A stretch of DNA of 15,624 nt from Terrimicrobiaceae bacterium (GTDB taxonomy: Bacteria; Verrucomicrobiota; Verrucomicrobiia; Chthoniobacterales; Terrimicrobiaceae): positions 1 to 15,624 of the forward strand of contig JBIIPZ010000054.1 in the NCBI GenBank assembly GCA_044342325.1, read 5' to 3'. The notes beneath the pieces are model-generated. The model was not told the origin of the DNA, did no database searches, and saw only the letters and a program-made list of their open reading frames with translations. The translations under genes were made by a program, and so were the position numbers. This document shows, piece by piece, positions 353 through 15,612 of the stretch; positions within the stretch are counted from its first letter, which is position 1; every line of letters starts with the position of its first letter.

Positions 353-1399
353 ATGCCTGTCGATAAAATCCCGAGTTCCGCCACTCAATCTCCAGCAACC
401 ATTTCGGATACCACAGTCGTGTCTTCCGACAAGGCTGCTGAGAAAAATCCTGTGGGTATCTCCTCGGCCAATGCCCCTGTCATGACAGATGAATCCGTAA
501 AGATGGATGAAGATGTTCCTGCAGATCCCACAGCTCCAGATAAAAAGCCTGATCAACCCGTTCCGATTCCTCGGCCTCGTAGCGATATCAACATCCTGGC
601 CATGCAGCAAATGATAAGTCAGATAACGATTGATGATGGCTTACTGCAAATGTCCTCCAGCAAAATCACGATGGATAGCATGCAGAAAACGAATAAATCT
701 TTAGCTGACAAGCAGATCAAGCAGATGGAAGATCAGGCGCAGAAGCAGCAGCAAGCCGATAAAAAGTCTGGCATTTTCTCTTGGGTATCCAAGATTTTCA
801 CGGCTCTCACCGTTGTGGTGGCAGTCGCTTTGATCGCAACTGGTGTTGGTGCGGGCTTTGGAATTGGCCTGCTGGTGGGTTTGGCGGCTGGACAGCTTCT
901 TCAGATCGATGCCGTGAAGAATGCGATTGTCAAAGCTGTGAGCGCTGTTTTCGGTGAAAAAGTTGGTGCAATTCTTGCGAATGTGGTCATCCTTGCTGTC
1001 CAAATTGCAATAGCCATCAAATCTGGCAATCTGGGTGCTGCGTTGGCAAAAGGAAGTAACATCATGAAGGCGGTCAGCAATGTCGCTGCAAAGGTGATCA
1101 AAGGCCTTAATGATGTCGATAAAGCCAAGAATACACTCATGAAAGTCAATACAACGGTGCAAGCGACTGGAGGAATCACTCAAGGAGGAATGCAAATTGA
1201 TATTGGAGTGACAAATATTCAACTTGCTAATCTGAAGCGGGTCGTGCAGGACAATAAAGCTGATATGTCATTCCTGACTGGCTTGATTGATCAAACATTG
1301 GCCCTGCAAAAGCAGGCAACAGACCGCCTCTCACAAAATCTTCAGGAAACCTTAAGCCAAGTTGCCTCCTATAGTTCCTACAATCGTTCCTGGAGTTAA
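353..1399 (+). CDS. sctE: Major hydrophobic translocator SctE (YopB/PopB/SseC/CopB-like)
   Basis: ATG at 353 has AGGA 6 nt upstream (the ORF track starts at TTG 347). A disordered S/T/P-rich N-terminus is followed by a coiled coil (KQIKQMEDQAQKQQQADKKSGIFSWVSKIF), a long hydrophobic hairpin (TALTVVVAVALIATGVGAGFGIGLLVGLAAG), a second hydrophobic segment and a C-terminal coiled coil. It directly follows sycD. Confidence 0.85.
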   Translation: MPVDKIPSSATQSPATISDTTVVSSDKAAEKNPVGISSANAPVMTDESVKMDEDVPADPTAPDKKPDQPVPIPRPRSDINILAMQQMISQITIDDGLLQMSSSKITMDSMQKTNKSLADKQIKQMEDQAQKQQQADKKSGIFSWVSKIFTALTVVVAVALIATGVGAGFGIGLLVGLAAGQLLQIDAVKNAIVKAVSAVFGEKVGAILANVVILAVQIAIAIKSGNLGAALAKGSNIMKAVSNVAAKVIKGLNDVDKAKNTLMKVNTTVQATGGITQGGMQIDIGVTNIQLANLKRVVQDNKADMSFLTGLIDQTLALQKQATDRLSQNLQETLSQVASYSSYNRSWS

Positions 1400-1421
1400 A
1401 AAATTTAAACATCCAACTATT

Positions 1422-2180
1422 ATGCCAGAAATCAATCCCAATATGACATTTGCCGGAATCGATTCCGCCAAATTGGCCCCTATCTTGAAAGACTATAATG
1501 TCTCTCAAGTTGACATCACTAAAATTCTCCAAGATCCCTCGCTTTACCGCGTATCGGATGTGATCACAGACCCCGCCGGCGCGTCAAAGGTCGCAGAGAT
1601 TGCCACCCCTTCCGCCAAAACAACGGCCCCGCTGGAAGAGAAAAATATATCGGCTTTCGAGAAGATTTTCCAAATGCTTCTTTCGATTATGTCGGATCAA
1701 AGCAAGTTCCAATCTTTGATGAACAAACTCAGTCTCTCTTCCAATGTGACCGCCTTGGAGTCCACCAAACTTGGTAATGAAAAAGTCGCCGACTCAGAAA
1801 AGACCAATGCGATTGCGGGCATTGTGAGTGGTGTTGTCAGTATGGGTTTTAGTGCGTATTCCATGAAAGTGGGTGCTGGGCCAACATCAAAAAATGGCGT
1901 GAATGCCACGAGTTCACCCAGTGTGGAGTCCCTTTCAGCCAAAGCGATGGCATTTCAACAAATTGGGACGGCGATTGGTGGAGTTTCAACAGGCATTGCT
2001 GGCATCGTCGCGGCCAATCAAAAGAAGGAAGGTCAAAACACCTTAGCGGAAGCCGATTTCGTTAAGACCGCTGCGCAAGCATTCGCGGCAGCCGCGTCCG
2101 ATATGCGAAGCCAAATGGATACCCAAATGGGTGCTGCCGGGAATATTCAGAGCTTTATCCAATCAGTAGCTCGGAATTAA
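1422..2180 (+). CDS. sctB: Minor hydrophobic translocator SctB (YopD/PopD/CopD-like)
   Basis: ATG at 1422 avoids overlap with sctE and gives 252 aa. It has one Gly/Ala-rich hydrophobic segment (AIAGIVSGVVSMGFSAYSM), a second amphipathic Gly-rich stretch and an amphipathic C-terminal helix, in the canonical chaperone-SctE-SctB order. Confidence 0.75.
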   Translation: MPEINPNMTFAGIDSAKLAPILKDYNVSQVDITKILQDPSLYRVSDVITDPAGASKVAEIATPSAKTTAPLEEKNISAFEKIFQMLLSIMSDQSKFQSLMNKLSLSSNVTALESTKLGNEKVADSEKTNAIAGIVSGVVSMGFSAYSMKVGAGPTSKNGVNATSSPSVESLSAKAMAFQQIGTAIGGVSTGIAGIVAANQKKEGQNTLAEADFVKTAAQAFAAAASDMRSQMDTQMGAAGNIQSFIQSVARN

Positions 2181-2251
2181 AGCCAGTCCGCAGTTGAAAT
2201 AACAGCCATGGAGACCGCTGTTTTCCGGTCAAGCCCTTCGGCGTTGCGATT

Positions 2252-3394
2252 GTGAGAAAACTGCGCGTTGGCGTTTCGATCTTTGTTTCGGAGGATGCGA
2301 ACATTTGGAGCAATGGCATCAACCAGAACATTGCGTTGCTTGCGCAGCTCCTTCGGAACATCGATTTTGTCGACAAAGTCTATTTTTTAAATGGCGGATC
2401 GGCTGCGAAGTTCCCGTCAGGTCTGAAGTTTGATCATCTCGATGTGTCGCTGGTGCAACCAAGCGATGTCACCTACGATATCGATGTTGTTATCGAAATG
2501 GGTGCGCGGCTCCCGATGGAGTGGAAGCGCCGGGTCTTGGCACTGGGGGGCAAGAGTGTTCTTTTTATCGTAGGGCACAGCTACAGCGGACTGGTCGAAT
2601 CGGTCCTCTTTGGCTCGCGTTATGCCTCTCTTGAGGATTCATGCTCCTATTCGGATGTGTGGGGACTGCCCCACCACCGGAAGACGGGAAGTCCTCTTCT
2701 GGAAACGATTTGCCGTCGGCAGGTGCGGGACATGCCGCATCTGTGGTCCCCCGTTTTCCTTCAGCCCGGCATCGATGAGATGTCGCGCGCTGGAAAACCA
2801 TTTGGATTTCAGCCTTCCCGCAGCGGGTCGCGAAACCGAGCCTGGCGGGTGGGAATCTTCGAACCGAACTTGTCGGTGGTGAAAAACTGTCTTATTCCCA
2901 TGCTGATTTGCGAGAGTGCTTATCGAAAAAACAAGGAAGCTATCAGTGAGATGATGGTGATGGGTGTGTCGTCGATCAAGGAGAAGCAGGAATTCAAAGA
3001 TTTTGCGCGCTGCCTATCGATGACCCGCGATGAACGGGCCACCTATAATCCCAGAATGCCTTTTGTGGAGTGCATGGCCCGGCATGGCATCGATGCCGTG
3101 GTATCGCACCAGTGGGAGTGTGCCTTGAATTATGCCTACTACGACGCTCTCCACGGTGGCTATCCCTTGATTCATAACTCCGAAATTCTCAGGGATGCGG
3201 GAATCGGTTACTTTTACTCTGGATCCTCGGCTTCGGCGGGCGCCGAGGCACTTCTGGAAGCTTGGGACAGCGCGCCGGAGCTTCGTGAGGAGTCACAACG
3301 CAGGGCGGCGGAGTATCTTCGCAAGCTGGCTCCTGACGATCCGAATAACATCCAAGCTTTCGCCGAGCGCCTCCTGGCGATCACCGCCGAATGA
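2252..3394 (+). CDS. DUF2827-family protein, putative GT-B-fold glycosyltransferase
   Basis: GTG start, 380 aa. Motifs recalled for DUF2827: RVGVSIF...NIWSNGINQN, DVVIEMGA, PHLWSP.F, VGIFEPNLSVVK.C.IPMLICE.AYR, VVSHQWE..LNY.YYDAL.GGYPLIHNS. The last resembles the GT-B nucleotide-sugar-binding signature (EA...G.PVI). The enzymatic function is inferred. Confidence 0.8.
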   Translation: MRKLRVGVSIFVSEDANIWSNGINQNIALLAQLLRNIDFVDKVYFLNGGSAAKFPSGLKFDHLDVSLVQPSDVTYDIDVVIEMGARLPMEWKRRVLALGGKSVLFIVGHSYSGLVESVLFGSRYASLEDSCSYSDVWGLPHHRKTGSPLLETICRRQVRDMPHLWSPVFLQPGIDEMSRAGKPFGFQPSRSGSRNRAWRVGIFEPNLSVVKNCLIPMLICESAYRKNKEAISEMMVMGVSSIKEKQEFKDFARCLSMTRDERATYNPRMPFVECMARHGIDAVVSHQWECALNYAYYDALHGGYPLIHNSEILRDAGIGYFYSGSSASAGAEALLEAWDSAPELREESQRRAAEYLRKLAPDDPNNIQAFAERLLAITAE

Positions 3395-5460
3395 AAACCT
3401 CTCCCTCCACCATCCGCCTCGCCTTGGCTGTGAGGCCTCCGGAAGCCAACCGCTCGCCGTGGCACTCCGACGACGCCCAGCTCGCATGGTTCCTTGCGAA
3501 ACTTTTTGCTCAGGTCGATGGCGTGAAGGTCGCCGGCATCCTGTGTGCGGCTTCCTTTGATCCCATCGATGGTTTGCCGCACATCCCCTTGGAATCGGGT
3601 GATGCTGGCATCGATGCCGTAATTGAAGTCGGCGATGCGCTGACTGAGGACTGGAGAGCTATTTTTCAAGAGGGTGGGGGATGCCGTGTGGCGCTGCGCA
3701 CGGGAAATGATCTGGCAAGCGGAGCGGAGCGATTGTTTTTCGCGAAGACGCCCGGGGAGGTTCCCGCCTTTCGCAATGCCGATGCTGTCTGGATTTTCCC
3801 CGGACCGGATGAAACGAATCGCGATTTTTTCGAAATCCTGTGCGGTTGTCCGGTGCATCGAGTCCCTCTCCTCTGGCATCCACACTTTCAGGAAAGCTTC
3901 TTGTGTGATCTTCCGGAGCAATCCTCGCTGGGATACAAGCCCGGCGAGGCGCGGTGGCGCATCGCCGTGTGCGAGGAGAACAAAAGCATCACCCAAAATC
4001 TCGTCGTGCCGCTTTTAATCGCCGAGAATGCCAACCGGAAAAATCCCCGTCTCCTCGAAGAAGTTCATGTGATCAACACGCGCCGTATCAACACGAACCC
4101 TGTCTTTGTGGATTTCCTGAAAACCTTGGATTTCGTCGACCAGGGGTTGCTTCAATTGTTGAACTTTATTCCCTTCTGCGAACTCATGGGCCGGAGGGCA
4201 AACTGTGTGGTGAGCCACCAATTTCACGCAAGGCCACCCCACTTTCTCTACGAGGCTTTGCATTGCAACTACCCGGTGGTTCACAATGCGCCTCAACTTC
4301 AAGGCGTGGGCTTTTTTTACAGGGAATTTGACGCCATGGGCGGTGCGGAGGCCTTGCTGGAAGCCCATCGCAGCCACGATGCCAACCTGGAGGAAACGCG
4401 CAAGGCGAATGCCGGCTTCATCGCGTCACTCTCTCCCTGCTTCGCGCCAAACATCAAGGCCTACTCGGATGCCTTGCAGGAGGCGGTGGAATCCAGTCGG
4501 CGTTCAAGGGTGTCTGCGGCACAGACTGTGGCCAGACCGAACAACCAATTGCCTCGGGATGGCAACAGCAAGGCTATCGTCGTTTATCTGGATGCCGGTG
4601 AGAAAGCGGCCGAGGAGTTCAGTTGGCTCCAAAAAACCTACCAACTCTGGAATCTGCATCGGGAATATGACTTGGTCGTCTACCACAATCCGGCCGTCCA
4701 GCCTCCAAAGGGCGAGGGCTTGGTGGCACGCCAGCTTGCTCCAATGGCTGATGATGACGGGTTTTGGAGCGACTATCCGTTCGTGAATTCCTTTGCCATG
4801 TTCCGGCGGGAGGGGGAGCAGGAATGGATACTGGACAGATACGAACATCTTTTCAAAACGGATTGTGATGTCTTCCTGACCACCAATCTGCGTGGTCTGG
4901 AGTCTGATCAAGTTCTGCTGGGCTACGGCGGCTACATGGAACATCCCGAGACGCGCGACGAGGTGGTCCAAAAGCTGGTTCGTATTTTCAAAAAACTCCG
5001 AATTTCCGATGGCGGTCTCAACCATGTGGGAGCTTCAATTTTTGGTCCAGCCCGGCAGGTGCTGCCTGTCGTGGCGGATCATCTCGCATTGACCCGCTAC
5101 TTGTTGGAAACGGAGTGGAAAAGCGGCGATCCCGGCAAATGGCCCGGCTGGTATCGGGGCGTGGCCTCCATGTATGCCATCCATCTTGCTGTGAATAAGA
5201 ACCTTCAGGCCCGAAATGTGCGGTTGAATGCGCTGGATGCGTTTTGCTTGGACAACAAAATCACCCGCGATGTCCTTCACATCCACGCATGGCATTGTGT
5301 GGCGGATTTTTCAAAGCACAAATGGTTTGCGGGAAAATACAAGCCCCGTTCTTTCAGCGGTATACCGGAGGTGGCCAAAGATTACTGCCTCTGCGTGGCG
5401 TCATCTTCTCTGGAAGAATTACGCAAACTTGCTGGCGGTAGTCATAACGACAAATCATAA
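3391..5460 (+). CDS. Two-domain protein: divergent DUF2827-like N-terminal domain fused to a DxD-containing GT-A-like C-terminal domain (putative glycosyltransferase)
   Basis: 689 aa with an ATGA overlap to the upstream gene. Residues ~1-365 are paralogous to the upstream protein (DAVIEVG, VPLLWHP, WRIAVCEEN.SI..N..VPLLIAE.A.RKN, VVSHQ...LYEALHCNYPVVHN). Residues ~391-689 carry YEHLFKTDCDVFLT (DxD at 4861-4869), WPGWYRGVASMY and HIHAWH. Confidence 0.72.
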   Translation: MKTSPSTIRLALAVRPPEANRSPWHSDDAQLAWFLAKLFAQVDGVKVAGILCAASFDPIDGLPHIPLESGDAGIDAVIEVGDALTEDWRAIFQEGGGCRVALRTGNDLASGAERLFFAKTPGEVPAFRNADAVWIFPGPDETNRDFFEILCGCPVHRVPLLWHPHFQESFLCDLPEQSSLGYKPGEARWRIAVCEENKSITQNLVVPLLIAENANRKNPRLLEEVHVINTRRINTNPVFVDFLKTLDFVDQGLLQLLNFIPFCELMGRRANCVVSHQFHARPPHFLYEALHCNYPVVHNAPQLQGVGFFYREFDAMGGAEALLEAHRSHDANLEETRKANAGFIASLSPCFAPNIKAYSDALQEAVESSRRSRVSAAQTVARPNNQLPRDGNSKAIVVYLDAGEKAAEEFSWLQKTYQLWNLHREYDLVVYHNPAVQPPKGEGLVARQLAPMADDDGFWSDYPFVNSFAMFRREGEQEWILDRYEHLFKTDCDVFLTTNLRGLESDQVLLGYGGYMEHPETRDEVVQKLVRIFKKLRISDGGLNHVGASIFGPARQVLPVVADHLALTRYLLETEWKSGDPGKWPGWYRGVASMYAIHLAVNKNLQARNVRLNALDAFCLDNKITRDVLHIHAWHCVADFSKHKWFAGKYKPRSFSGIPEVAKDYCLCVASSSLEELRKLAGGSHNDKS

Positions 5461-5534
5461 TTTTTTTCATTTCCGTAGTGTCAAACCCGCTTCCACCTGC
5501 TGCACTTCAGTCGCAAAGCTGACGATTCTTTCCT

Positions 5535-5918
5535 ATGCAAACCATGCCAACCCATGTTTCCGCTCTTTGCGACCTTCTGGCTGTTCCAGCTTCTGAGAGG
5601 GAACTTCCCATTCAACTGGTGATTGATGATGCGAACCTTGTTGAAATCCGCGAGCACGACAAGCGCTGGTATCTCTGCGGGCAATTGAACGAGTTGCCCA
5701 TCGCATCCGATGATTCTGCGCTTGAAAATTTTCTTGAGGCCCCGTTTCCCGTCTCGGCATGTGGATTCACGAGCTTCGAGTCTGCCAACGGCCGTCTTCT
5801 TTACTGGAGCGAAATCCTTCCCGGCGCGCATGGACTGCCGCCCCGGCCTGATCTCAAATCCTTCATCCGCGAGCTCTCAGGTCTTTGTAAAAAGGTCTCG
5901 CTCGAAGGGATTTTGTAG
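5535..5918 (+). CDS. Class I T3SS chaperone-like protein (YscB/SycE/CesT fold)
   Basis: 127 aa, small and fairly acidic, with a helix-3 strands-helix-2 strands-helix pattern (IQLVIDD..LVEIRE...WYLCGQL ... GRLLYWSEI ... DLKSFIRELSGLC). It sits immediately upstream of sctC, the position of yscB in Yersinia. Confidence 0.6.
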   Translation: MQTMPTHVSALCDLLAVPASERELPIQLVIDDANLVEIREHDKRWYLCGQLNELPIASDDSALENFLEAPFPVSACGFTSFESANGRLLYWSEILPGAHGLPPRPDLKSFIRELSGLCKKVSLEGIL

Positions 5919-5942
5919 GGCATTGTCTCGCGCCTTGAAAAT

Positions 5943-7970
5943 ATGCGTCTTTTCAAAATAGCAGGCCGTGTTCAGACATTGGCGAGTGTGGCCGCTGTGG
6001 TTCTTGGTTTTTTGCATTCTTTGCCCACCCTCAAGGCGGATTCCACAGAGGCTGCGCTGATCCCCTGGCCAAAAATCAAATACCTCATCGTCGCTCAAAA
6101 CCGTGAGGTGGCTGATGTGCTCTCCGAACTCTCACAGCAGCATGGAGTGCGCACGGTCATTAGCGGAAATGTGAAAGGGCGCATCAGCGGTCGGTTTGAA
6201 AACATTCCGCCCGGCGACCTCCTCTCCCAGCTTTCCCGCTCGTTCAACCTGATGTGGATGTTTCATAACGGAATCCTCTATGTTGGCACGCCGGTGGAGG
6301 TGCAAACCAGCTTGGTGACTCTGCGCTTTTCCAAGCCGGAAACTGTCCTTTCCTCGCTTTCGCGAATGGGCATTCTCTCCCCTGGGTCCTCTGTTTCCAA
6401 TGTGCCGGGCACGCCTCTTATCTCCATCACCGGCTTGCAGGCTTTTGTGGATGTCAACAGGCATGTCGCCGAGACGCTGGACAATCAGGAGCAGTTTCGC
6501 CAGCAGGGCGAGATGGTGATCGAGGTTTTTCCTCTCAATTACGCTTGGGCCTACGATGTTGTGCTCGGTGGTGGCTTGGCAAGTGCTGATGGAAATGCCA
6601 GTTCGGGAAGCGTCATCAAGGGCGTTGCCTCTTTGCTTAACGAGCTTGTGAACGATACGAGCCAAGGCGCTGTCAATATCGGTGACACCTTCGCCAGCGG
6701 TGGCAAGCCCAGGGCCATGGTTGGCGCTCTAGGTCCTCAGCAAGCGGCGGAAACCGCCAGACTCGGATTTTACACGGGACCGGCACCACAATCATCGACC
6801 GGCCCCGCATCGCCAGCCCCTGCAGCAGGCCCACCCTCAGCGGCAGGCCCGTCCTCCGCACCGCAGCAGGGCTACAGCACCGCGACAGGGCCGGGTCAAG
6901 GGCTTCCCGGCGCTTTCGTGACCAATCAGGCCAGCATCATGTCTGATGTGCGCCGGAATGCCGTGGTGATTCGGGATATCCGGGAAAACATGCCCTCCTA
7001 TGCGGATGCCATAGCACAGCTGGATGTGCCTGCGCGGGTCATTGAAATTTCCGCCGCTATCGTAGATTTGGCGATCGGCACCTCGCGCACCTTGGGCGTC
7101 AACTCTATCGGCGTGGGAGCGGCAGGGCAGGGCGGGGGAGTAGCCAGTGCGACCGGGCGCCGCGAACTCGCGGTGGATGATGCCGCGATCGTCGCTCAGA
7201 ATGCCGCCGCAAAAGCCAACGGGGTCAATGTGCTCAACAATCCGCTCATTTCCCGCGCCGCCGATGCCGCAAACGCGGCTGATGCCCCGAACATTCTGGC
7301 AAGTGGCGTCTTTGGCACCACGCAAGTCATGGCCTCCATCAACGCTCTGGAGCAACAAAACAAGGCCCGCACACTATCCCGCCCCTCCGTGCTGACACTG
7401 GATAATTTTGGCGCCAGCATCAGTCGCCTCGAAACCTTCTATGTGAACAGCACGGGCCAGTATGTGAGCAATCTTTTCAATGTCAGCACAGGGCTTAGCC
7501 TTCAGGTCATTCCCCATGTGACCATCGAGAAAAATAAGGAGCGCATCTACCTGCAGGTGAAAATTGAGGATGGAAACCTTGGGGGACGCCAAGTGACTTC
7601 GATTCCGACGGTGCAGCAATCCTCCCTGACGACTCAAGCCATGGTGAAACGCGACCAGAGCCTCTTGATTGGCGGGCTCTTCCTGAAGGTCGATAAAAAG
7701 CAGATCAGTGGATACCCTTGGCTCCAGCGCATGCCGGTTCTTGGCTACCTTTTCTCGGTCAAGGGCAGGATGGATGACATGGTTGAGCGGATTTTTGTGA
7801 TCACTCCGCGTATTGTCGAAATCGACTCGAAGAATCTCGGCGATTACTCCAAGTATTTCCAACCGGCTCCGCTTCAACAGGAGGCCCTTGACGAGGAGGC
7901 CGCGTTCAACCTGCCGGTGGAAGAAGTGCCTGTGCCATCCCCGACTCCCGCTGCTAAAAAGAAAAAATGA
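5943..7970 (+). CDS. sctC: T3SS outer-membrane secretin SctC (YscC/HrcC family)
   Basis: Sec signal peptide, then N0 (VKGRISGRF...LSRSFNLMWMFHNGILYV) and N3 (FPLNYAWAYD; SDVRRNAVVIRD...IAQLDVPARVIEISAAIVD). The secretin domain includes INALEQQNKARTLSRPSVLTLDN, QSLLIGG, P.L..MPVLGYLF and ERIFVITPRIV. Confidence 0.96.
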   Translation: MRLFKIAGRVQTLASVAAVVLGFLHSLPTLKADSTEAALIPWPKIKYLIVAQNREVADVLSELSQQHGVRTVISGNVKGRISGRFENIPPGDLLSQLSRSFNLMWMFHNGILYVGTPVEVQTSLVTLRFSKPETVLSSLSRMGILSPGSSVSNVPGTPLISITGLQAFVDVNRHVAETLDNQEQFRQQGEMVIEVFPLNYAWAYDVVLGGGLASADGNASSGSVIKGVASLLNELVNDTSQGAVNIGDTFASGGKPRAMVGALGPQQAAETARLGFYTGPAPQSSTGPASPAPAAGPPSAAGPSSAPQQGYSTATGPGQGLPGAFVTNQASIMSDVRRNAVVIRDIRENMPSYADAIAQLDVPARVIEISAAIVDLAIGTSRTLGVNSIGVGAAGQGGGVASATGRRELAVDDAAIVAQNAAAKANGVNVLNNPLISRAADAANAADAPNILASGVFGTTQVMASINALEQQNKARTLSRPSVLTLDNFGASISRLETFYVNSTGQYVSNLFNVSTGLSLQVIPHVTIEKNKERIYLQVKIEDGNLGGRQVTSIPTVQQSSLTTQAMVKRDQSLLIGGLFLKVDKKQISGYPWLQRMPVLGYLFSVKGRMDDMVERIFVITPRIVEIDSKNLGDYSKYFQPAPLQQEALDEEAAFNLPVEEVPVPSPTPAAKKKK

Positions 7971-8824
7971 GCGACCCAATGAACACACACTCGCAGGAAT
8001 ACCCCCGCATCTTTGCTGTCATGAGATCTATTTCAAAACGCCTTCTGCTGATTCTCCTCGCTGTCTTGATGGCGGGGTGCGGTGCGGAAGATCTCTACAC
8101 CAATGTGACGGAGAGCGACGCCAACACGATGCTTGGCCTCCTGATCGCGCGGGGAATTTCTGCCACGAAGCGCCCGGTGAAGGAAAATCTCTTCGCCGTC
8201 GCCGTGCCTCGCGATCAATTCGCCAGCGCGGTGGATATTCTGAAGTGGTATGGAATTCCCAAGGAAACTTTCGATGGGATCGGCGAAATGTTTCCGAAGA
8301 CCGGCCTTGTTTCCTCACCGAGCGAGGAGCGGATCCGTTTCATGCACGCTCTGGCGGGCAATATCTCCGAGATGCTCAGCAACATCGATGGCGTTATCAC
8401 CGCGCGCGTCATCCTCGTGCTGCCGAGCAACGATCCCTATACAAACAAGAATAACCCCGCTTCTGCTTCGGTGTTCTTGAAAATCCGGCCCGGCTTTGAT
8501 ACCACCACGCAGATTCCACAGATCAAGCAGCTCGTGATGAACAGCGTCGAGGGCTTGAACTACGACAAGGTTGCCGTGACGCTTGTGCGCTCGGACGAGG
8601 TCGATTTCTTCAATCCTTTGAAGGCCGGTGCACAGCAGGGAAAAATTCTGGGGATTTCCGTGAATTCCGAATCCCGTGGTGCGCTCGTTGCGGTCCTGAT
8701 CGCAGCCTTCCTCTTGGTGCTGGGCAGCGCGGGAGCTGCTGTTTATTTTTTCCTCAAGTTTCGAAAGGGCGCGCAGGGTTCTGCAACATCCACAGAGTCA
8801 ATTGAGCCCCCAGTGGCCGGTTGA
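7967..8824 (+). CDS. sctJ: T3SS inner-membrane ring lipoprotein SctJ (YscJ/HrcJ/PrgK)
   Basis: Lipobox LMAGC, then LYTNVTESDANTM, FPKTGLVSSPSEERIRF, LSNIDGVITARVILVLP, PASASVFLK and IKQLVMNSVEGLNYDKVAV, with a C-terminal TM helix. The start is ambiguous: 7967 (ATGA overlap with sctC), 7979, or 8021 (gives a normal 19-aa signal peptide). Confidence 0.96.
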   Translation: MSDPMNTHSQEYPRIFAVMRSISKRLLLILLAVLMAGCGAEDLYTNVTESDANTMLGLLIARGISATKRPVKENLFAVAVPRDQFASAVDILKWYGIPKETFDGIGEMFPKTGLVSSPSEERIRFMHALAGNISEMLSNIDGVITARVILVLPSNDPYTNKNNPASASVFLKIRPGFDTTTQIPQIKQLVMNSVEGLNYDKVAVTLVRSDEVDFFNPLKAGAQQGKILGISVNSESRGALVAVLIAAFLLVLGSAGAAVYFFLKFRKGAQGSATSTESIEPPVAG

Positions 8825-8848
8825 GGCCCTCATACAGGTTGATCGCCC

Positions 8849-9520
8849 ATGAGCACCACCAGCAAAGAAACCTGGCAGAAACTCGCCGATTCCTGGGTGG
8901 GAATCGCTCCGAGGGAGGCCCATTTCGAGTCCTGGATGTCGCTGAATCTCCATCCCCCGCTTGAAGGACATCTCCCGGCAGAATGGGTTGCCCGCGTAGA
9001 GGCGGACCCTCGCGCGTCTGCATTCGCCCGCCGCTATCTGCGATCCAGTTTCAAATGGGAATCGACTTGGGTGGACTGGATGCCCAACAGCGATGTGGCT
9101 GCCTTGGTGCTCGAGCCGAAGGAGTCCTTGGAAAGGACCGTAATGCTCTCCGGCGCGCTCTGCTGCCGGCAGCTGATCTCTGTGTCGATCTCAAAAGCCG
9201 TTCGAATCACCCTGGTTGATGCATTGGGCAGCGAGGTGCTGCAGCGTCTCTCTGCGCGGCCAGCCCTCGGTAGAATGGGACTTCCTGATGCCGTCGTGCC
9301 GCTGGCCTGGGCCTTGAAACCCGCCGAGACCCTTCGCCGGAGCGGCCTGCTTTGCCTGCGTCTGGCGGTGTCGCCGTTTCCCTCCGGCATGGAATCCCGC
9401 CTCGCCGCGATCCTCCCAGATTCTGTGTGGATGGAGCCTTTCCCTGCTTTTTCCCCGGAGGACCCAAAACTCGCAATGGAGTGCATCTCCGCCGCGAGGA
9501 AACTTGACCATTCTTTATGA
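8849..9520 (+). CDS. sctK: Putative sorting-platform protein SctK (YscK/OrgA-like)
   Basis: 223 aa, Leu/Trp/Pro-rich (LHP near the N-terminus, GLLCL near the C-terminus). It lies between sctJ and sctL, the conserved sctK position. The call is mostly positional. Confidence 0.62.
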   Translation: MSTTSKETWQKLADSWVGIAPREAHFESWMSLNLHPPLEGHLPAEWVARVEADPRASAFARRYLRSSFKWESTWVDWMPNSDVAALVLEPKESLERTVMLSGALCCRQLISVSISKAVRITLVDALGSEVLQRLSARPALGRMGLPDAVVPLAWALKPAETLRRSGLLCLRLAVSPFPSGMESRLAAILPDSVWMEPFPAFSPEDPKLAMECISAARKLDHSL

Positions 9521-10131
9521 GTTCGCACCTTCTCCGGATTGAAAATGATATCCCCGCCGTGTTGTCCGGCTCCGTGTTGAAAGCGGCCGACGCCCTCAAG
9601 CTGGCAGATGCCGAGCGCGTGCTTGTGGCAGCTAGGGAAATCGAGGCTCGCAGCAAGGAGGATGCCGCCAAGGAGGCTGAACTTCAGCGGCAAGAAGGCC
9701 ACCGCAAGGGCCTGCAGGAAGGTCTCCTCGAGGCCCGTTTGCACAACCTGGAAACCGTTGCGGCTACCTCCAAGATGATCTCCGGTTTGCACCACCAAAT
9801 CTGTGATGTCGTGACGACCTGCCTACGCACTCTACTCAAGGACATGCCTCCGGCACAGAGGATCGAGCAAGCAGCTACGCTGGCGTTGGAAACGGTGAAT
9901 CTCCAGCAGACGGTGGTTCTCTGCGTGAACCCCGCCGAATTGCGCGAGGCCGTGCCGGTGTCGCAAAAACTCTCGGAACTGATGTCTGGCGGCGCCCGTG
10001 TGGAATGTCGAGGCCGCGAGGATGTGGAGCTGGGCGACTGCCTTTTGGAAACGCCCATGGGCATCATCCGCTGCGCGTTGGAAGACCAACTCGCTCTCAT
10101 CAATAAAGCCCTTCACAGCGCGCAGGAATGA
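9517..10131 (+). CDS. sctL: T3SS stator SctL (YscL/HrpE/FliH family)
   Basis: 204 aa with VLKAAD, an AxxxGxxxG repeat ([10 protein letters not shown]), LCVNP and [16 protein letters not shown] overlap with sctK. Confidence 0.92.
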
Positions 10132-10135
10132 GATC

Positions 10136-11470
10136 ATGACGGCCGCCGAACCTCTTCCAGGTTACTTTCAGCGCCTCCGCTCGGCCGGTGCCGCTGTCGT
10201 TCCCAGACGCCTCTCTGGCCAGATCACACAGGTCGCCGGCGTGCTGGTGAAGGCGCTCCTTCCCGGCGTGCAAGTGGGGGAACTCTGTGAGGTCTGGCGT
10301 CCCGGAGCCAAGGAAGCGCAGTTCGCCGAGGTGATTGGTTTTTCTGGCTCCACCGCCCTCCTGATGCCTGTGGGTGATTACGAGGGCCTCTGCTCGAACA
10401 CCGAGGTGCGCCCGACCGGGACGACCCACAAGATCAAGGTCGGCGAAGGACTCCTTGGCCGCGTGCTCGATGGGCTCGGCAACTTTCTTGATACTTCCGC
10501 CGAGCCGTTCATCGCGGAAGCCGAGTATCCCGTCAATGCCCTGCCGCCGGACCCCCTCTCGCGCGGCCTTGTCGAGCGTCCGCTCTCTCTTGGCCTGCGG
10601 GCTATAGATGGCCTGCTGACCTGCGGCGAGGGGCAGCGCATCGGCATCTTTGCCGCTGCGGGTGGAGGCAAGAGCACCCTGCTTTCCACGATTCTTCGCA
10701 ATACCGAGGCTGAGGTCGTCGTTCTCGCCCTCATCGGTGAGCGTGGTCGCGAGGTTCGCGAATTTTTGGAAATGGTCTTGGATGAGGAATCCCGCAAACG
10801 CGCTGTGGTGGTGGTTTCCACCTCCGACCGCCCCGCCATCGAGCGCCTCAAATCGGCTCATGTCGCTACGACTGTGGCCGAGTATTTTCGCGACAAGGGA
10901 AAGAAGGTTCTGCTCATGCTCGACTCGGTGACGCGCTTCGCCCGCGCTCAGCGCTCCATCGGCCTCGCGGCTGGCGAACCACCCGCGCGCCGTGGATTTC
11001 CGCCCTCAGTTTTCAATGCGCTTCCCGCCCTGCTGGAGCGCGCCGGTCCTGCCGAGAAGGGATCCATCACCGCCATTTATACCGTGCTTGTGGAGGGTGA
11101 CGACATGAACGAACCGGTGGCCGACGAGGTGCGCTCGATTCTCGACGGCCATGTGATCCTGTCCCGCCGACTCGCCTCGGCCTACCACTACCCCGCTATC
11201 GATGTTCTGGAGAGCGTGAGTCGTGTCATGGGCAATGTGGTGGACGATGCCCACAAGGCCGCTGCCGGCAAGGTGCGCGACATGCTGGCCCGCTACCGCG
11301 ACACCGAGTTGCTAATCCGCATCGGTGAATACAAAAAGGGCAGCGATCCCGCCACCGACGAGGCGATTGAAAAAAACAAGGCGATCAATGATTTTCTGAA
11401 GCAGAAACTCTCCGAAAAATCCACCTATCAGGATGCGCTGGAAGGTCTCAAAAAACTCGCTGGAGTATGA
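10136..11470 (+). CDS. sctN: T3SS ATPase SctN (YscN/FliI family)
   Basis: Walker [26 protein letters not shown], Walker [50 protein letters not shown] and [11 protein letters not shown] 10136 (444 aa) lies 4 nt after the sctL stop and is preferred to the ORF-track start at 9998. Confidence 0.98.
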
Positions 11471-11961
11471 AGTATCCGCTCACATTCCTTTTGGATTTGC
11501 GCAAGACGCGCATGGAGCGCTGCGAGCAAGCCCTTGCCCAGGCCCGCGCCATGGTCAAACGCCGCCACGAGGAACTTGATGACCGCATTCGGGAGCACAG
11601 TGAGTATGTTCAATGGTGCGACAACGAGGAGGATCGCCTCTTTGCGGAACTCTTCGCCAAGCCTGCCCAGCACCAAAAAGTTCTCGATGTTCGCGAGGAA
11701 ATGCTCGCCAACCGCGCTCGCGAAGCTGAATACCTCAAACGCATTGATGATGCCCGTGCGGCCTTGGAGGCTGCACGCGCCGAGGAGGCCAAGTGCCTTG
11801 AGGCCCTCCAAATTGCCATCCGCAATCGCGAAAAACTCGATTCCCACAAGACGCTGTGGACCGATGGATTCAAACAAGCCGAACAAATGGCCGAGGATGC
11901 GGTGATGGAGGAAACCGCTGAGTCTGCTTATCTTAGAAATCTGCAATTAGTTGAATCATAG
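11467..11961 (+). CDS. sctO: T3SS stalk protein SctO (YscO/FliJ-like)
   Basis: 164-aa coiled-coil protein starting [23 protein letters not shown], with REKL and EQMAED near the C-terminus. ATGA overlap with sctN, in the conserved position. Confidence 0.85.
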
Positions 11962-11966
11962 TTACT

Positions 11967-13955
11967 ATGGAAAACCTTCAAATCAGCTCTTCTCATCTCA
12001 GGTCGGTTGTCTCCACGGAGCCACCCATAGTTGTGTCGGCAAAAGCGGATGATGTGGCTTTTTTTAATGCAGCTATGCAAGGTGAGACCACGGCGTCATC
12101 CTACAAAGACGCTGCTTCGACAGGCTCCCCAGAGGAGATCCTGCCTCAAAGCCAGCAAGATCAAATTTTAAAAGCTGCAGCCAAAAGTCCCGAGGATTTG
12201 GCCCAAGTGGTTCAACAGCTTCTTTCCGAGAATCCCTCACTTGCCGGAGCCATAGCCGCTTACGCGACCAAACTTGATCCCTCTTCAGCCGCAACTTTTG
12301 CGGAAGCTGCGATCAAAGCCAATCCGCAAGCTGCTGCGCAGATTGCGGCATCGGTCACGGAGGTAGCGATCAAAGCCAATCCGCAGGACGCCGCGCAAAT
12401 CGCGTCCTCGGTCGCTGAAGTTGCGGTCAAAGCCAGTCCGCAGGTCGCCGAGCAGATAGCGGCCTCGGTTGCCGAGGCTGCCATCAAAACCAATCCCGAG
12501 GCCGCCGCGCAAATCGCGTCCTCGGTCGCGGAAGTTGCGATCAAAGCCAATCCCGAGGCCGCCGCGCAGATTGCGACATCGGTCGCGGAGGTTGCGGTCA
12601 AAGCCAGTCCGCAGGTCGCCGAGCAGATAGCGACATCGGTCGCTGAGATTGCGGTCAAAGCCAATCCCGAGGCAGCCGCGCAGATTGCGATATCGGTCGC
12701 GGAGGTTGCGATCAAAGCCAATCCCGAGGCAGCAGCGCAGATTGCGATATCGGTCGCGGAGGTTGCGATCAAAGCCAATCCCGAGGCAGCAGCGCAGATT
12801 GCGACATCGGTCGCCGAGTTTGCGATCAAAGCCAATCCGCAGGCTGCCGCGCAGATTGCGACATCGGTCGCCGAGCTTGCGATCAAAGCCAATCCGCAGG
12901 CTGCCGCGCAGGTTGCGGTATCGGTCGCGGAAGTTGCGATCAAAGCCAATCCGCAGGCAGCAGCGCAGATTGCGTCCTCGGTCGCCGAAGCTGCGACCAA
13001 AGCCAATCCACAGGCCGCCGCGCAGATTGCCGGCAGTGTTTTTTCCGCCGTTGTGAATGCCATTCCCAACATTTCCTTGCCAAACACCTTGGATATTGCC
13101 GCGCGCATCGCGAAGGTTGCGGTAAGTGCGAATCCCATTGCAGCTCCGGATATTGCGGCTGAGATGATGAAAACAGCCCTCTCTTTCTCTCCTGGATATG
13201 CTCCGGCCGTAGCCGAGGAATTGCAGTTAGTGATCAATGAAGTGGCTCCCGAGTTCGCCGCTGTCGTGGGGGTGGTTTTGCAAAATCTGCAAACGAACAC
13301 TTTGCCGAATAGCGGATCCAACACTCCTGCGACTCCTATAGGGGTCGCCGCAGCCCCTGTTGCAGGCGTTATTTCGGGAACCGTCTCGATGGCCACGGGC
13401 GGAACATCGCCCTCTCCAAGTGGCAACCCAGCTCAATCCCAGAATACGCCTTCTATGCCGGATCAGGCACCACAATCAGGATTCATTGCTTCACAAGCCA
13501 CCGCAGCCAGCGTGGGCGGGTCTAACCCCGTTCCTCAGGCATCTCCCAAGGTGATTGTTAATCTCCTCCAACTGATTGCCGATACGGTCAGTAACATCAA
13601 AATCGATGAGACTCAGACGACCATTGTTTTGCAGAAAACAGCCGAGCTTCCCGGAGAAGTGACCCTCCAAGTTCGCATGCGCAATGGTGCTCTCGAAGTC
13701 AACTTCAATACTTCCGACCCCGAGAGCCTCGCTACTTTGCAAAACAACATTTCAGCTCTCCAGTCCCAGCTCCAGAAGTCGATCGCTATATCGGCTCAGG
13801 TTTTTCTCGCTGGGCAACCTCTGGAGGACGAATTATCGAATTTGGATGATTCAAAATCCGAGGTCGGCACCGATTTCAAAACCGGACAGTCCAATGAGGG
13901 GAACGGAAAAGACAAAGTCCAAAAGAAATCTCAGAATGGAGGAGCACAGCAATGA
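11967..13955 (+). CDS. sctP: Needle-length control protein SctP (YscP/FliK-like) with internal tandem repeats
   Basis: 662 aa between sctO and sctQ. It has a long Ala-rich repeat and a low-complexity middle, a C-terminal FliK/T3S4-like domain (TTIVLQKTAELPGEVTLQVRMRNGALEVNFNTSDPESLATLQNNISALQSQL) and a charged tail. Confidence 0.85.
   Translation: MENLQISSSHLRSVVSTEPPIVVSAKADDVAFFNAAMQGETTASSYKDAASTGSPEEILPQSQQDQILKAAAKSPEDLAQVVQQLLSENPSLAGAIAAYATKLDPSSAATFAEAAIKANPQAAAQIAASVTEVAIKANPQDAAQIASSVAEVAVKASPQVAEQIAASVAEAAIKTNPEAAAQIASSVAEVAIKANPEAAAQIATSVAEVAVKASPQVAEQIATSVAEIAVKANPEAAAQIAISVAEVAIKANPEAAAQIAISVAEVAIKANPEAAAQIATSVAEFAIKANPQAAAQIATSVAELAIKANPQAAAQVAVSVAEVAIKANPQAAAQIASSVAEAATKANPQAAAQIAGSVFSAVVNAIPNISLPNTLDIAARIAKVAVSANPIAAPDIAAEMMKTALSFSPGYAPAVAEELQLVINEVAPEFAAVVGVVLQNLQTNTLPNSGSNTPATPIGVAAAPVAGVISGTVSMATGGTSPSPSGNPAQSQNTPSMPDQAPQSGFIASQATAASVGGSNPVPQASPKVIVNLLQLIADTVSNIKIDETQTTIVLQKTAELPGEVTLQVRMRNGALEVNFNTSDPESLATLQNNISALQSQLQKSIAISAQVFLAGQPLEDELSNLDDSKSEVGTDFKTGQSNEGNGKDKVQKKSQNGGAQQ
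12309..13049 (+). repeat. Coding tandem repeat: 13 x 57 bp (19 aa, consensus AIKANP[E/Q]AAAQIA[T/S]SVAEV)
   Basis: Units start at 12309 (gcgatcaaagccaatccg) and recur every 57 nt to 12993 (gcgaccaaagccaatcca), in frame with no indels. Confidence 0.97.
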
Positions 13956-14956
13956 CCAATATCAGCAAAGAGAATCTGCCTGAGCTTGACCCCAACCAAT
14001 CGAGGCTTTTTGAGCTCACAACGGGGCTCGGAGGCCACTTCCCTGTGCGTTTTGGCAATGACCTCTGGACAATTGTTTGCACGGCTGAGCCAAAGCCTTG
14101 GAAACCTGAGATAGCGCTTCCGCTTTTGATCGGTGGTGAACCATCCGCCCTGGAGTTGACATTCACGCCGGGCGCCAAACTCTTTGAGCGTCACTCGGAG
14201 TTTCGAGATATCGCCTCCATGTCGGAGCCGTTCGCATTGGCAATCCGTGCCACATTGAACCGGGAGCTTCTTGACTCGCTCCAAAATGCCTTTGATGCCG
14301 AGGTGGAGATCGCTCCGTCTTTTCCCAAACCTCTTCCCCCCTTGCTTCTGGCTTTTGATATTCTTGACCAAAATGGCACAGCCGAAGGCAGGGGTGTGCT
14401 TCGGATCGGTCTCGAGACATTGAAACGCATCGAAGGGATCGCGCCATCGTGGCAGACACGAAAGAACCCCAAGCTCGAAAGCCTCCCGCAACCCGTGGCT
14501 TTATGCGTCGCTGCGATCAATGTCCCGGTCGACGACCTCGCCAACTTGAGGGCAGGAGATTGCCTCCTCCTTGGAGATTCTGCCGCCTGGCCGTATCAAA
14601 TCTGGATTTCCGCAGGAGCCGCTCCTATGCCAACAGGCATCCCTGCAAACGCAGCGCAACCGCCACTCTTGGAAACATCAACCCAATCAGCCATGAACTC
14701 TTCCGATTCCACATCCGCCCCGTCACCAATCTCCGGCCTTCAATTGCCCGTTCTCATTGTTGCCGGTCGTCGCGAAATGACCCTTCACGACTTGTCCTCC
14801 CTGCGCGAGGGGGCATCCATCGAAATCGGGAACGGGGAGGAAATCGCCGTCCAACTCGAGGTCAACAATCAAGTCGTGGCCAAGGGTCGACTGGTGCGCG
14901 TGGCTGATAAAATTTGCGCCAACATCACAGAGGTCATCTCGTTCCCTCAGGCATGA
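13952..14956 (+). CDS. sctQ: T3SS cytoplasmic ring protein SctQ (YscQ/HrcQ; FliM/FliN SPOA domains)
   Basis: SPOA1 (DDLANLRAGDCLLL) and SPOA2 (LQLPVLIVAGRREMTLHDLSSLREGASIEI...VNNQVVAKGRLVRVADKICANITEV). GGAGGAG lies at 13938-13944 and there is an ATGA overlap with sctP. Confidence 0.92.
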   Translation: MTNISKENLPELDPNQSRLFELTTGLGGHFPVRFGNDLWTIVCTAEPKPWKPEIALPLLIGGEPSALELTFTPGAKLFERHSEFRDIASMSEPFALAIRATLNRELLDSLQNAFDAEVEIAPSFPKPLPPLLLAFDILDQNGTAEGRGVLRIGLETLKRIEGIAPSWQTRKNPKLESLPQPVALCVAAINVPVDDLANLRAGDCLLLGDSAAWPYQIWISAGAAPMPTGIPANAAQPPLLETSTQSAMNSSDSTSAPSPISGLQLPVLIVAGRREMTLHDLSSLREGASIEIGNGEEIAVQLEVNNQVVAKGRLVRVADKICANITEVISFPQA

Positions 14957-15612
14957 ATGTGAATCTCTCAAATCCGCTGGAGATCATTCTCCTGCTGCTG
15001 ACGACCTCCATGGTGCCGTTCCTTGCGGCCACCGTGACATCCTTCGCCAAGATCGTCATTATTTTCGGAATCATCCGCAACGCATTGGGCCTGCAGCAGA
15101 CACCGCCCAACATCGTGCTCACCTCGCTGGCCATCATCATCACCTGCTACATCATGGCCCCTGTCGCCTCGGACACTTTTGCCGTGGCCCAGAGCGAGAA
15201 TTTGTCCAGCATCACTTTTGATAACGCGACAGAGAAATTGGGGGAGATTTCCAAACCCATCACACTCTTCCTGATTAAAAACAGCACGATCCAGACGCGC
15301 TTGTTTTTCCTCGAGAAGGCCCGCCAACTCTGGCCCAAGCGATTTGCTGAAAAAGCCACGGAAAATGACTTTCTGATTGCCATGCCGGCTTTTGTTCTCA
15401 CCGAGATCACTCAGGCTTTTAAAATCGGATTCATCATTTACCTGCCCTTCGTCGTGGTGGACCTGATTGTATCCAATGTTCTTATGGCGCTTGGTATTGT
15501 TATGATTTCGCCAACGACCGTTTCGTTGCCCTTCAAGCTCATGCTCTTTGTGCTCTTGGATGGCTGGATGCGCCTGATAGACGGGATTATGTTGACGTAT
15601 AGGATCGGATAA
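14953..15612 (+). CDS. sctR: T3SS export apparatus protein SctR (YscR/FliP family)
   Basis: TSFAKIVIIFGIIRNALGLQQTPPN, PAFVLTEITQAFKIGFIIYLPFVVVDLIVSNVL and SLPFKLMLFVLLDGW. ATG 14953 overlaps the sctQ stop (ATGA), giving 219 aa. Confidence 0.97.
   Translation: MNVNLSNPLEIILLLLTTSMVPFLAATVTSFAKIVIIFGIIRNALGLQQTPPNIVLTSLAIIITCYIMAPVASDTFAVAQSENLSSITFDNATEKLGEISKPITLFLIKNSTIQTRLFFLEKARQLWPKRFAEKATENDFLIAMPAFVLTEITQAFKIGFIIYLPFVVVDLIVSNVLMALGIVMISPTTVSLPFKLMLFVLLDGWMRLIDGIMLTYRIG

Follow-up and report, generated by a model that had tools for sequence, protein, structure and literature searches.

Why should two putative glycosyltransferase (GT) genes be located in the middle of a gene cluster for an injectisome, a non-flagellar type III secretion system (T3SS)? 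This question is raised by a 15,624-nt stretch of DNA (contig JBIIPZ010000054.1, in the following called the window), which comes from an uncultured lake (freshwater) bacterium of a Verrucomicrobia lineage represented by metagenome-assembled genomes (MAGs). The window carries a run of injectisome genes on one strand (+), and the genes in question, here called A and B, lie in mid-cluster. We tentatively favour the explanation, with somewhat less than an even chance of being right, that their products constitute a cytoplasmic protein-glycosylation module, which was re-targeted from adhesins to a substrate exported by the T3SS and was recruited into the injectisome operon, with which it is co-expressed. 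We infer the enzymatic activity, the division of labour between the domains, and the candidate acceptors from sequences, gene positions, and structure models.

Two coupled genes within an injectisome cluster

Gene A (2252-3394, + strand) starts with GTG and codes for a DUF2827 protein of 380 amino acids, which is a canonical A-type copy of this family and a predicted GT-B (GT4-like) glycosyltransferase. Gene B (3391-5460, + strand) starts with ATG and codes for a DUF2827-DUF7164 fusion protein of 689 amino acids. The fusion consists of a diverged B-type DUF2827 domain (residues 1-385, 3391-4545; PF10933) and a C-terminal DUF7164 domain predicted to be a GT-A enzyme (residues 390-689, 4558-5460; PF23741), which contains a DxD motif (D491-C-D493, 4861-4869). 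The stop codon of A and the start codon of B overlap in the sequence ATGA (3391-3394), as read directly from the DNA, suggesting translational coupling. Gene A starts 71 nt behind the end of sctB (2180), and 74 nt separate the end of B from the next open reading frame (ORF) at 5535. An earlier note on this DNA had described this layout, including the coordinates, the overlap, both gaps, the common strand, and the position between the translocator genes and a chaperone-sctC-sctJ block, and all of these details were verified.

A consensus scan of the + strand of both gaps found neither a terminator-like nor a sigma-70-like promoter site, which is a weak test in this phylum. The GC content at third codon positions (GC3) is 0.63 for both A and B. 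Because the apparatus genes span GC3 values of 0.57-0.71, which include that of the pair, the insert is not a recent one.

Protein A is a predicted GT-B glycosyltransferase

Protein A matches the full profile of PF10933 (DUF2827; positions 1-362) with 402 bits and an E-value of 2.4e-120, far above the gathering score of 25 bits (27 bits for PF23741). In 240 other DUF2827 domains, 49 columns show a conservation of at least 90%; protein A retains 44 of them and is an ordinary member of the family. A structure model was predicted by AF2 from an alignment of 39 sequences, with a predicted local distance difference test (pLDDT) score of 88.2 and a predicted template modelling (pTM) score of 0.87. 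Searching the PDB with this model by Foldseek yielded only GT-B enzymes as top matches, most of them GT4-like (BshA, MshA, PimA, and WaaG), together with SenB and bacterial OGT homologues (probability 1.00, E-values down to 8.5e-10, TMq 0.62-0.66). GT1-type enzymes were also matched in a library of viral structures. On this basis, protein A is predicted at the fold level to be a GT-B glycosyltransferase of the DUF2827 family, as the earlier note had assumed. At the sequence level, neither A nor B matched Glycos_transf_1 or a related GT4 family in Pfam even at E ≤ 10, a search of the A profile against PDB sequences gave only chance matches (E ≥ 1), and NCBIfam contained no match for either protein. 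Residue K211 of A might correspond to the diphosphate-binding lysine of GT4 enzymes.

The best match of the A model in the viral library was an uncharacterised protein of Pyramimonas orientalis virus 01B (E 8e-21, TMq 0.79, 16% identity), which scored far above any named GT. This suggests that a giant algal virus carries a DUF2827-like enzyme.

Both proteins are apparently cytoplasmic. Kyte-Doolittle hydropathy over 19 residues peaks at 1.41 in A and 1.45 in B, whereas SctE, SctJ, and SctR, which are membrane proteins, reach 2.50-2.55. Moreover, the first Rossmann strand of the A model begins at residue 4, so that a signal peptide would not fit. These data agree with the previous assessment that neither protein has an obvious signal peptide or transmembrane helix.

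Protein B combines a diverged DUF2827 domain with a predicted GT-A domain

The N-terminal domain of B (residues 16-362) was assigned to PF10933 with E-values of about 4.1e-71 to 7.3e-72 and 240-243 bits (profile positions 7-362), confirming by Pfam what had been proposed for it. It retains 33 of the 49 conserved columns, the lowest number of all domains compared (minimum of the others 36, median 48.5), with four of the 16 misses being alignment-trimming gaps. The lost columns include those of R155, P205, K211, and N293 of A, which are invariant elsewhere, as well as R268 and Y294 (99% conserved). The domain sits on a long branch, with a root-to-tip distance of 2.10 versus a subclade median of 0.64. 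Of 121 columns that are nearly invariant in 23 ordinary B-type proteins, 53 carry other residues in this domain; the affected positions include an N-terminal Gly-containing motif, three basic residues (R152, K202, and R259 in B numbering), and the signature stretch HQWENxQNY. Because the support for a B clade of 77 members (0.157 or 1.0) is ambiguous after midpoint re-rooting, the assignment to A-type or B-type is based on the tblastn pattern.

The loss of so many family-invariant residues might indicate that the pair is a decaying or non-functional insert, as might an in-frame stop codon in the sctB gene of a related locus, L001 (see below). However, the replacements are essentially alike in all nine fusion orthologues, which share 70-92% identity, and a comparison of the window with L001 gives this domain a ratio of nonsynonymous to synonymous substitution rates (dN/dS) of 0.29. 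Therefore, its divergence represents a fixed derived state rather than decay. The ORFs of A and B are intact in the window as well as in L001, with dN/dS values of 0.14-0.29, and the C-terminal domain is modelled with a pLDDT of 95 and has an intact DxD motif. Decay is thus barely credible as an explanation. Judging from its sequence, the N-terminal domain of B may be a non-catalytic or re-specified partner that diverged while the new GT-A domain was gained. The previous count of three GT-like domains agrees with the GT folds predicted for A and the C-terminal domain of B, and may be an overstatement with respect to the DUF2827 domain of B.

The C-terminal domain of B matches PF23741 (DUF7164) from residue 456 to 651 with E-values of about 1e-30 to 9.8e-32 and 107-110 bits, covering profile positions 97-303 of 353. 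Its AF2 model reached a pLDDT of 95.2. The GT6 enzymes ABO/alpha-1,3-GalT were retrieved first by Foldseek (E 5e-7), and WbbM was matched as well (probability 1.00 for both), with moderate TMq values of 0.45-0.49 and 9-13% identity to the GT6 structures in the structural alignments. Pfam gave no match to GT6, which limits the likeness to the fold level. The DxD aspartates D491 and D493 (D102 and D104 of the domain) are at least 90% conserved among 39 aligned DUF7164 domains, and none of the columns of this alignment is fully invariant. In accordance with the earlier note, we predict a DxD-containing GT-A glycosyltransferase, as a fold-level assignment.

We found 283 relatives of the DUF7164 domain at E ≤ 1e-3 among cluster representatives. 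DUF7164 domains are elsewhere fused to GT2, FkbM methyltransferase, or PF11397 GlcNAc-transferase domains, and the nearest one outside the fusions discussed here (67% identity in the domain) is also joined to a GT2 domain. Several giant proteins, among them P0138 (2345 amino acids) and P0147 (2869 amino acids), contain five to eight DUF7164 domains in tandem, seven of them in P0138 according to Pfam. Apart from DUF7164 proteins, the nearest clusters to the C-terminal domain in a protein atlas were phage proteins (0.96), and in one of these clusters 40% of the members contain PF23452, HPAT (hydroxyproline O-arabinosyltransferase-like). An HPAT identity of residues 390-689 was considered from this lead and dropped, as Pfam gave no confirmation at E ≤ 10. 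Full-length orthologues of the entire fusion protein were found eight times in metagenome-derived protein sets (70-92% identity), one of them from a Verrucomicrobia MAG.

The properties of both proteins also bear on the possibility that A and/or B are T3SS effectors, which would be injected to glycosylate host proteins. Their genes are indeed located inside a T3SS cluster and adjoin an ORF for a class-I chaperone-like protein, and the C-terminal domain of B is predicted as a DxD GT-A enzyme. However, the A model shows no disordered N-terminal export signal, its first strand starting at residue 4, B aligns from residue 1 with B-type proteins lacking any T3SS context, and effector GT families were not matched in Pfam even at E ≤ 10. 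Because the tandem of an A-type and a B-type gene is widespread without nearby sct genes, the acceptor should be a bacterial one, and we consider an effector function decidedly improbable.

Predicted complex of A with the N-terminal domain of B

Structure prediction of a complex between A and residues 1-385 of B yielded interface scores (ipSAE) of 0.91, 0.91, and 0.90, while the best of three controls scored 0.00. Of 157 solved complexes, 116 attained the mark used for ipSAE, as did 2 of 215 mismatched pairs; this calibration is only rough for A and B because custom alignments were used. The runs share at least 93% of the contacts, and the pLDDT of the partner is at least 86. The predicted dimer is pseudo-symmetric since equivalent regions of both chains form the interface. 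The prediction supports, rather than proves, that A and the N-terminal domain of B form a heterodimer.

Related loci link DUF2827 pairs to adhesins

The genomic contexts of DUF2827 genes were surveyed with one genome per species, using the best 80 loci of 513 stretches, i.e., L001 and 79 others. The genes occur in tandems of two to four paralogues, with at least two copies in 75 of the 80 loci, and follow a fixed order, in which an A-like copy (37-53% identity) directly precedes the copy nearest to the N-terminal domain of B. In nearly all of the 79 loci, it is the ORF behind the A-type copy that matches the latter domain best (E about 1e-47 to 1e-62). A real C-terminal extension is present only in L001; long DUF2827 ORFs of 450-860 amino acids from high-GC genomes turned out to be artefacts of upstream read-through and not fusions.

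A gene for a trimeric autotransporter adhesin was detected within about 3 kb in 45 of the 80 loci by local hidden Markov models (HMMs) for the signal peptide and the membrane anchor, a count which represents a lower bound because each HMM was built from three sequences. The adhesin gene lies upstream on the same strand in 36 of these 45 loci (median distance 1216 nt), and Pfam verified the adhesins in four inspected loci. Thus, the homologues are not confined to loci for lipopolysaccharide (LPS) or capsule synthesis; such a confinement, along with the absence of the pair from related T3SS clusters, is what the earlier note had named as speaking against its proposal. Because the family adjoins adhesins and is not restricted to such loci, a protein-glycosylating role fits its distribution. 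The upstream slot held by the adhesin elsewhere is occupied in the window by the exported T3SS translocators. A link between DUF2827 proteins and adhesins has been made independently in a preprint of 2026, the accessible text of which gives 327 such neighbours and proposes a cytoplasmic glycosylation of these adhesins (10.64898/2026.01.22.700529).

The adhesin gene immediately precedes the DUF2827 pair on two annotated plasmids of Burkholderia, namely L082 of B. thailandensis (1940-11273), where the adhesin stop codon overlaps the first DUF2827 start codon, and L081 of B. glumae (1922-11252). As genes for an integrase, IS21, and Tn3 flank these units, adhesin and GT pair may travel together as a mobile module. 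Loci of the Collimonas type contain a gene for a MORN-repeat protein upstream of the DUF2827 genes. In nine Collimonas and Paraherbaspirillum loci, tblastn produced SctC-like matches with 23-25% identity, and the one inspected, in L002, proved to be PilQ beside pilMNOP; therefore, we do not regard them as a T3SS context. Searching the 79 other loci by tblastn with all 15 proteins of the window revealed no true sct gene and no DUF7164 part.

The adhesin HMMs found no match at L016, L023, L025, and L057, which are the Verrucomicrobia-type loci nearest to A in the tree. The DUF2827 pairs of L025 (10-13085) and L057 (10764-18673) are surrounded by genes for GT2, GT4, GT11, and GT34-like enzymes, a sulfotransferase, an FkbM methyltransferase, and ABC exporter/HlyD proteins, and a fragment of an ORF with RTX repeats was observed 5' of the pair in L016 (40-525). 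These three may be loci for a type I-secreted glycoprotein or a polysaccharide. Small ORFs for PIN-domain proteins and/or IS200-like transposases split A and B in L057 (7549-10661), L022 (15-2992), and L035 (16-3789), unlike the tight coupling seen elsewhere.

These settings lead to a different explanation, in which A and B would act in the synthesis or decoration of a glycoconjugate other than a glycoprotein (an exopolysaccharide, LPS-like molecule, or glycolipid) needed when the injectisome is deployed. It would agree with the polysaccharide-type GTs, methyltransferases, and a sulfotransferase encoded around the pairs of L018, L025, and L057, and with GT4-like and GT6/WbbM-like folds being typical of polysaccharide and glycolipid synthesis. 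The multi-GT fusions of DUF7164 and its tandem proteins of seven to eight copies likewise resemble polymerising enzymes. However, Pfam identified no lipid-carrier priming transferase, flippase, polymerase, or sugar-nucleotide synthesis gene in the window, and the dominant context of the family is one large gene for a secreted protein directly upstream. We regard the synthesis of such a glycoconjugate as improbable.

Conservation of the cassette in a relative

Locus L001 is a stretch of 6576 nt from a Verrucomicrobia MAG, which is collinear with positions 775-7342 of the window and shares 91.5% nucleotide identity over 6585 nt. The genes are arranged in the same order of sctE-sctB-A-B-orf127-sctC, with orf127 being 94% identical. 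The dN/dS values between the window and L001 are 0.21 for A, 0.29 for the N-terminal, and 0.14 for the C-terminal domain of B, compared to 0.08-0.38 for sctC, sctE, sctB, and orf127. The cassette is maintained under purifying selection in this one relative. The expectation that related T3SS clusters keep the pair is borne out by L001; the other 79 loci show no T3SS context. The sctB homologue of L001 (591-1406) contains an in-frame stop at codon 133, which could be due to an assembly error or an onset of decay, while its GT genes, orf127, and sctC are intact.

Proposed function and weighing of the evidence

The earlier note had suggested a glycosylating T3SS, an interpretation that finds partial support in these data. 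In the glycosylation module we favour, A and the diverged DUF2827 domain of B would form a pseudo-symmetric heterodimer. The export substrate, unfolded or free of its chaperone, would be primed by protein A at Ser, Thr, or another type of residue, with the N-terminal domain of B acting mainly as a partner or an acceptor-recognition subunit, and the C-terminal DxD GT-A domain of B would add a further sugar from a nucleotide sugar. The modified protein would then exit via the T3SS, as glycosylated flagellins do via the flagellar T3SS. The likeliest acceptors would be SctE, SctB, perhaps an SseB-like filament protein encoded past the edge of the window, or the repeat-rich SctP-like protein. Because of their position directly upstream, the translocators SctE and SctB are the first candidates. 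The remodelling of B, as apparent from its distance of 2.10, the rewritten signature motif, and the new C-terminal domain shared by nine orthologues, is what would be expected after a change of acceptor.

Several observations weigh against this proposal. The T3SS context was seen in one of the 80 loci, L001, which belongs to the same lineage as the window, and the conservation of the T3SS linkage is shallow because this sole relative is 91.5% identical. The DNA examined of six Verrucomicrobia-type loci (L016, L022, L023, L025, L035, and L057) contains no sct genes, and the gene setting of L025 and L057 could equally serve a polysaccharide. If the stop codon in sctB of L001 is real, the T3SS of this organism may be decaying while the GT genes persist. 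Nothing in the sequence ties A or B to any particular T3SS protein. The co-transcription with the sct genes, which is deduced from the spacing and the scan for sigma-70 promoters, is a further assumption of the proposal, and the predicted heterodimer may merely mirror a homodimer interface of the family, since the two chains are paralogous. Finally, the accessible text of the preprint states that no DUF2827 protein has been characterised biochemically (10.64898/2026.01.22.700529).

The narrow T3SS context is also the starting point for the most serious, if rather unlikely, alternative. Here, A and B would be a working glycosylation module for a non-T3SS acceptor encoded elsewhere, such as an adhesin, an RTX protein exported by a type I system, or another surface protein, and would have been inserted into the sct operon with, at most, a co-regulation upon host contact. 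Such an origin would agree with the link to adhesins in 45 of 80 loci and with the nearest Verrucomicrobial relatives, L025 and L057, in which ABC/HlyD genes accompany clusters rich in GTs, and the PIN and IS200-like ORFs flanking or splitting the pair in Verrucomicrobia-type loci hint at mobility. However, A and B have fully ameliorated to the GC3 range of the cluster, the genes are tightly packed with gaps lacking a terminator-like site, and the cassette is kept at the same place under purifying selection in L001. Moreover, B was remodelled specifically in the T3SS-linked lineage, and an adhesin was found neither in the window nor in L001.

A wider form of our proposal, which we consider doubtful, would make this the first glycoprotein-exporting injectisome, in which a DUF2827 heterodimer, together with the GT-A domain fused to it, modifies proteins of the translocon or the filament, or else the ruler with its repeats, in the cytoplasm before export. 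DUF2827 pairs would then be a portable module for the glycosylation of exported fibres, which moved between type V adhesins, perhaps substrates of type I systems, and a type III system, and the remodelled B would mark the switch of acceptor. If parts or cargo of the injectisome are indeed glycosylated here, its export gate accepts glycoproteins, and exposed parts of the translocon or needle gain a new way of being stabilised or hidden from hosts. In this case, a compact two-gene system with few candidate acceptors would become available for DUF2827 and DUF7164, both uncharacterised families. The findings also bear on the interactions of uncultured freshwater Verrucomicrobia with eukaryotic hosts.

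Surrounding injectisome genes

The other genes of the window are likewise encoded on the + strand. Its start cuts off a gene for a TPR-type class-II (translocator) chaperone, of which the 3' part is present (3-344; TPR_19, E 1e-12, and TPR_2 by Pfam), followed by sctE for the SseC-like major translocator (347-1399; PF04888 SseC, E 1.3e-14) and sctB for the SseD-like minor translocator (1362-2180; PF05802 SctB2, E 7.9e-5), which is located directly 5' of the GT pair. SctB also matched the NCBIfam family translocon_SseD with an E-value of 7.5e-14, which is under the family cut-off. About 90 N-terminal residues of SctE are rich in Ser, Thr, and Pro, and the protein contains a hydrophobic segment (Kyte-Doolittle, 19 residues, 2.55). 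The GC3 of sctE and sctB (347-2180) is 0.48, far below that of every other gene of the window (0.57-0.71), and their products diverge faster from those of L001, with 76-85% amino acid identity compared to about 94% for A, orf127, and SctC. The translocator genes look like a fast-evolving or exchanged module.

Behind the GT pair, orf127 (5535-5918) codes for a small protein of 127 amino acids resembling class-I T3SS chaperones. It matched neither Pfam nor NCBIfam, and the assignment is a lead given by CesT/SycN/SsaM clusters of the protein atlas (0.90-0.91) and a structural similarity to SigE chaperones (TM 0.64). The following genes code for the secretin SctC (5943-7970; PF00263, PF03958, PF21304) and the inner-membrane ring lipoprotein SctJ (7967-8824; PF01514, E 1.3e-27); sctJ lies directly 3' of sctC, with no sctD in between (5943-8824). 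The next segment (8849-11470) contains the sctK-like gene (PF06578, weak), sctL (PF02108, weak), and sctN for the ATPase (PF00006 and PF18269). The ORF start of sctN at 9998 is probably too early because it lies 134 nt inside sctL and the Pfam domains begin at residue 76, pointing to a later true start. Further downstream are sctO (11467-11961; PF07321, E 1.2e-15), a gene for an SctP-like ruler/switch protein of 662 amino acids (11967-13955; PF02120 and PF09483, both C-terminal), and sctQ and sctR (13952-15612; PF01052 and PF00813).

The SctP-like protein contains 12.8 copies of a 57-nt (19-residue) tandem unit (12300-13030, 85% matches by TRF). The unit is of the IKANPQAAAQIA[ST]SVAEVA type with Ser or Thr in each copy, and the C-terminal domain is T3S4-like. 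The repeat may serve in setting the needle length and is a possible glycosylation target. Altogether, Pfam identified SctC, J, L, N, O, Q, R, E, and B as injectisome core components in the window, whereas SctD, F, I, S, T, U, V, and W lie outside. Scans of the window with Rfam and for tRNA genes gave no matches. Among 146 matches, SctC homologues are frequent in records of Spartobacteria, Chthoniobacterales, and Candidatus Xiphinematobacter, and non-flagellar T3SSs are already known from Verrucomicrobia according to the accessible text of a survey (PMC3459982).

Comparison with known glycosylation and secretion systems

A dedicated cytoplasmic glycosylation is of interest here as a process coupled to export. 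It is established for substrates of flagellar type III systems and for several adhesin pathways. The closest precedent, which was missing from the list drawn up in the earlier note, is given by the adhesin-linked DUF2827 tandems of Burkholderiales and other bacteria (10.64898/2026.01.22.700529). They share with A and B the Pfam family, the A-then-B order, the cytoplasmic location, and the GT-B-like fold, and are likewise located directly 3' of a gene whose product is an exported surface protein. The neighbours differ, being injectisome genes here rather than a type V adhesin gene. Moreover, B is strongly diverged and fused to a DUF7164 GT-A domain, which occurs in none of the 79 other loci, and the function of the adhesin-linked pairs has only been proposed.

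The GtfA-GtfB pair of accessory Sec systems is an O-GlcNAc transferase complex for serine-rich repeat adhesins, which consists of tandem GT-B paralogues, one catalytic and one degenerate, and acts in the cytoplasm before export, with GT-A and GT-D enzymes extending the glycan. On paper, A and B would work alike, with a tandem of paralogues predicted to have a GT-B fold, a possibly degenerate partner, export through a dedicated secretion system, and an extra GT domain; the complex is a predicted one in our case. The secretion system is a different one, and families of the GtfA/B type were not matched in the Pfam and NCBIfam output for A and B.

Flagellin of Aeromonas is glycosylated before its export by the flagellar type III system via a Maf-dependent pseudaminylation, as reported in the accessible part of the respective study (PMC4065374). 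Flagellin glycosylation islands resemble the module proposed here in a cytoplasmic glycosylation ahead of the type III export gate and in GT genes clustered with those for the apparatus or filament. They differ in serving the flagellar T3SS and in employing unrelated enzyme families, and genes of nonulosonic-acid pathways were not found in the window by Pfam. HMW1C/NGT and Aah/TibC are dedicated cytoplasmic GTs as well, encoded beside the exported protein they modify. They belong to the GT41 family and the heptosyltransferases, respectively. These families differ from those of A and B, and the OGT homologues among the many GT-B matches obtained by Foldseek do not constitute a specific match.

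NleB/SseK proteins are GT-A effectors, which are injected and act on host proteins. They share with B a DxD GT-A domain encoded together with a T3SS; in our case, there is neither an export-signal region nor a match to this family, and DUF2827 proteins are widespread without a T3SS. Within the records covered by our literature search, no description of a GT cassette inside an injectisome cluster was found, and the accessible text of the 2012 T3SS survey contains zero occurrences of 'glycos' (PMC3459982). What is already known is thus a cytoplasmic protein glycosylation coupled to secretion; what appears to be new here is a GT cassette in an injectisome cluster, whose anatomy is solid and whose known distribution is narrow.

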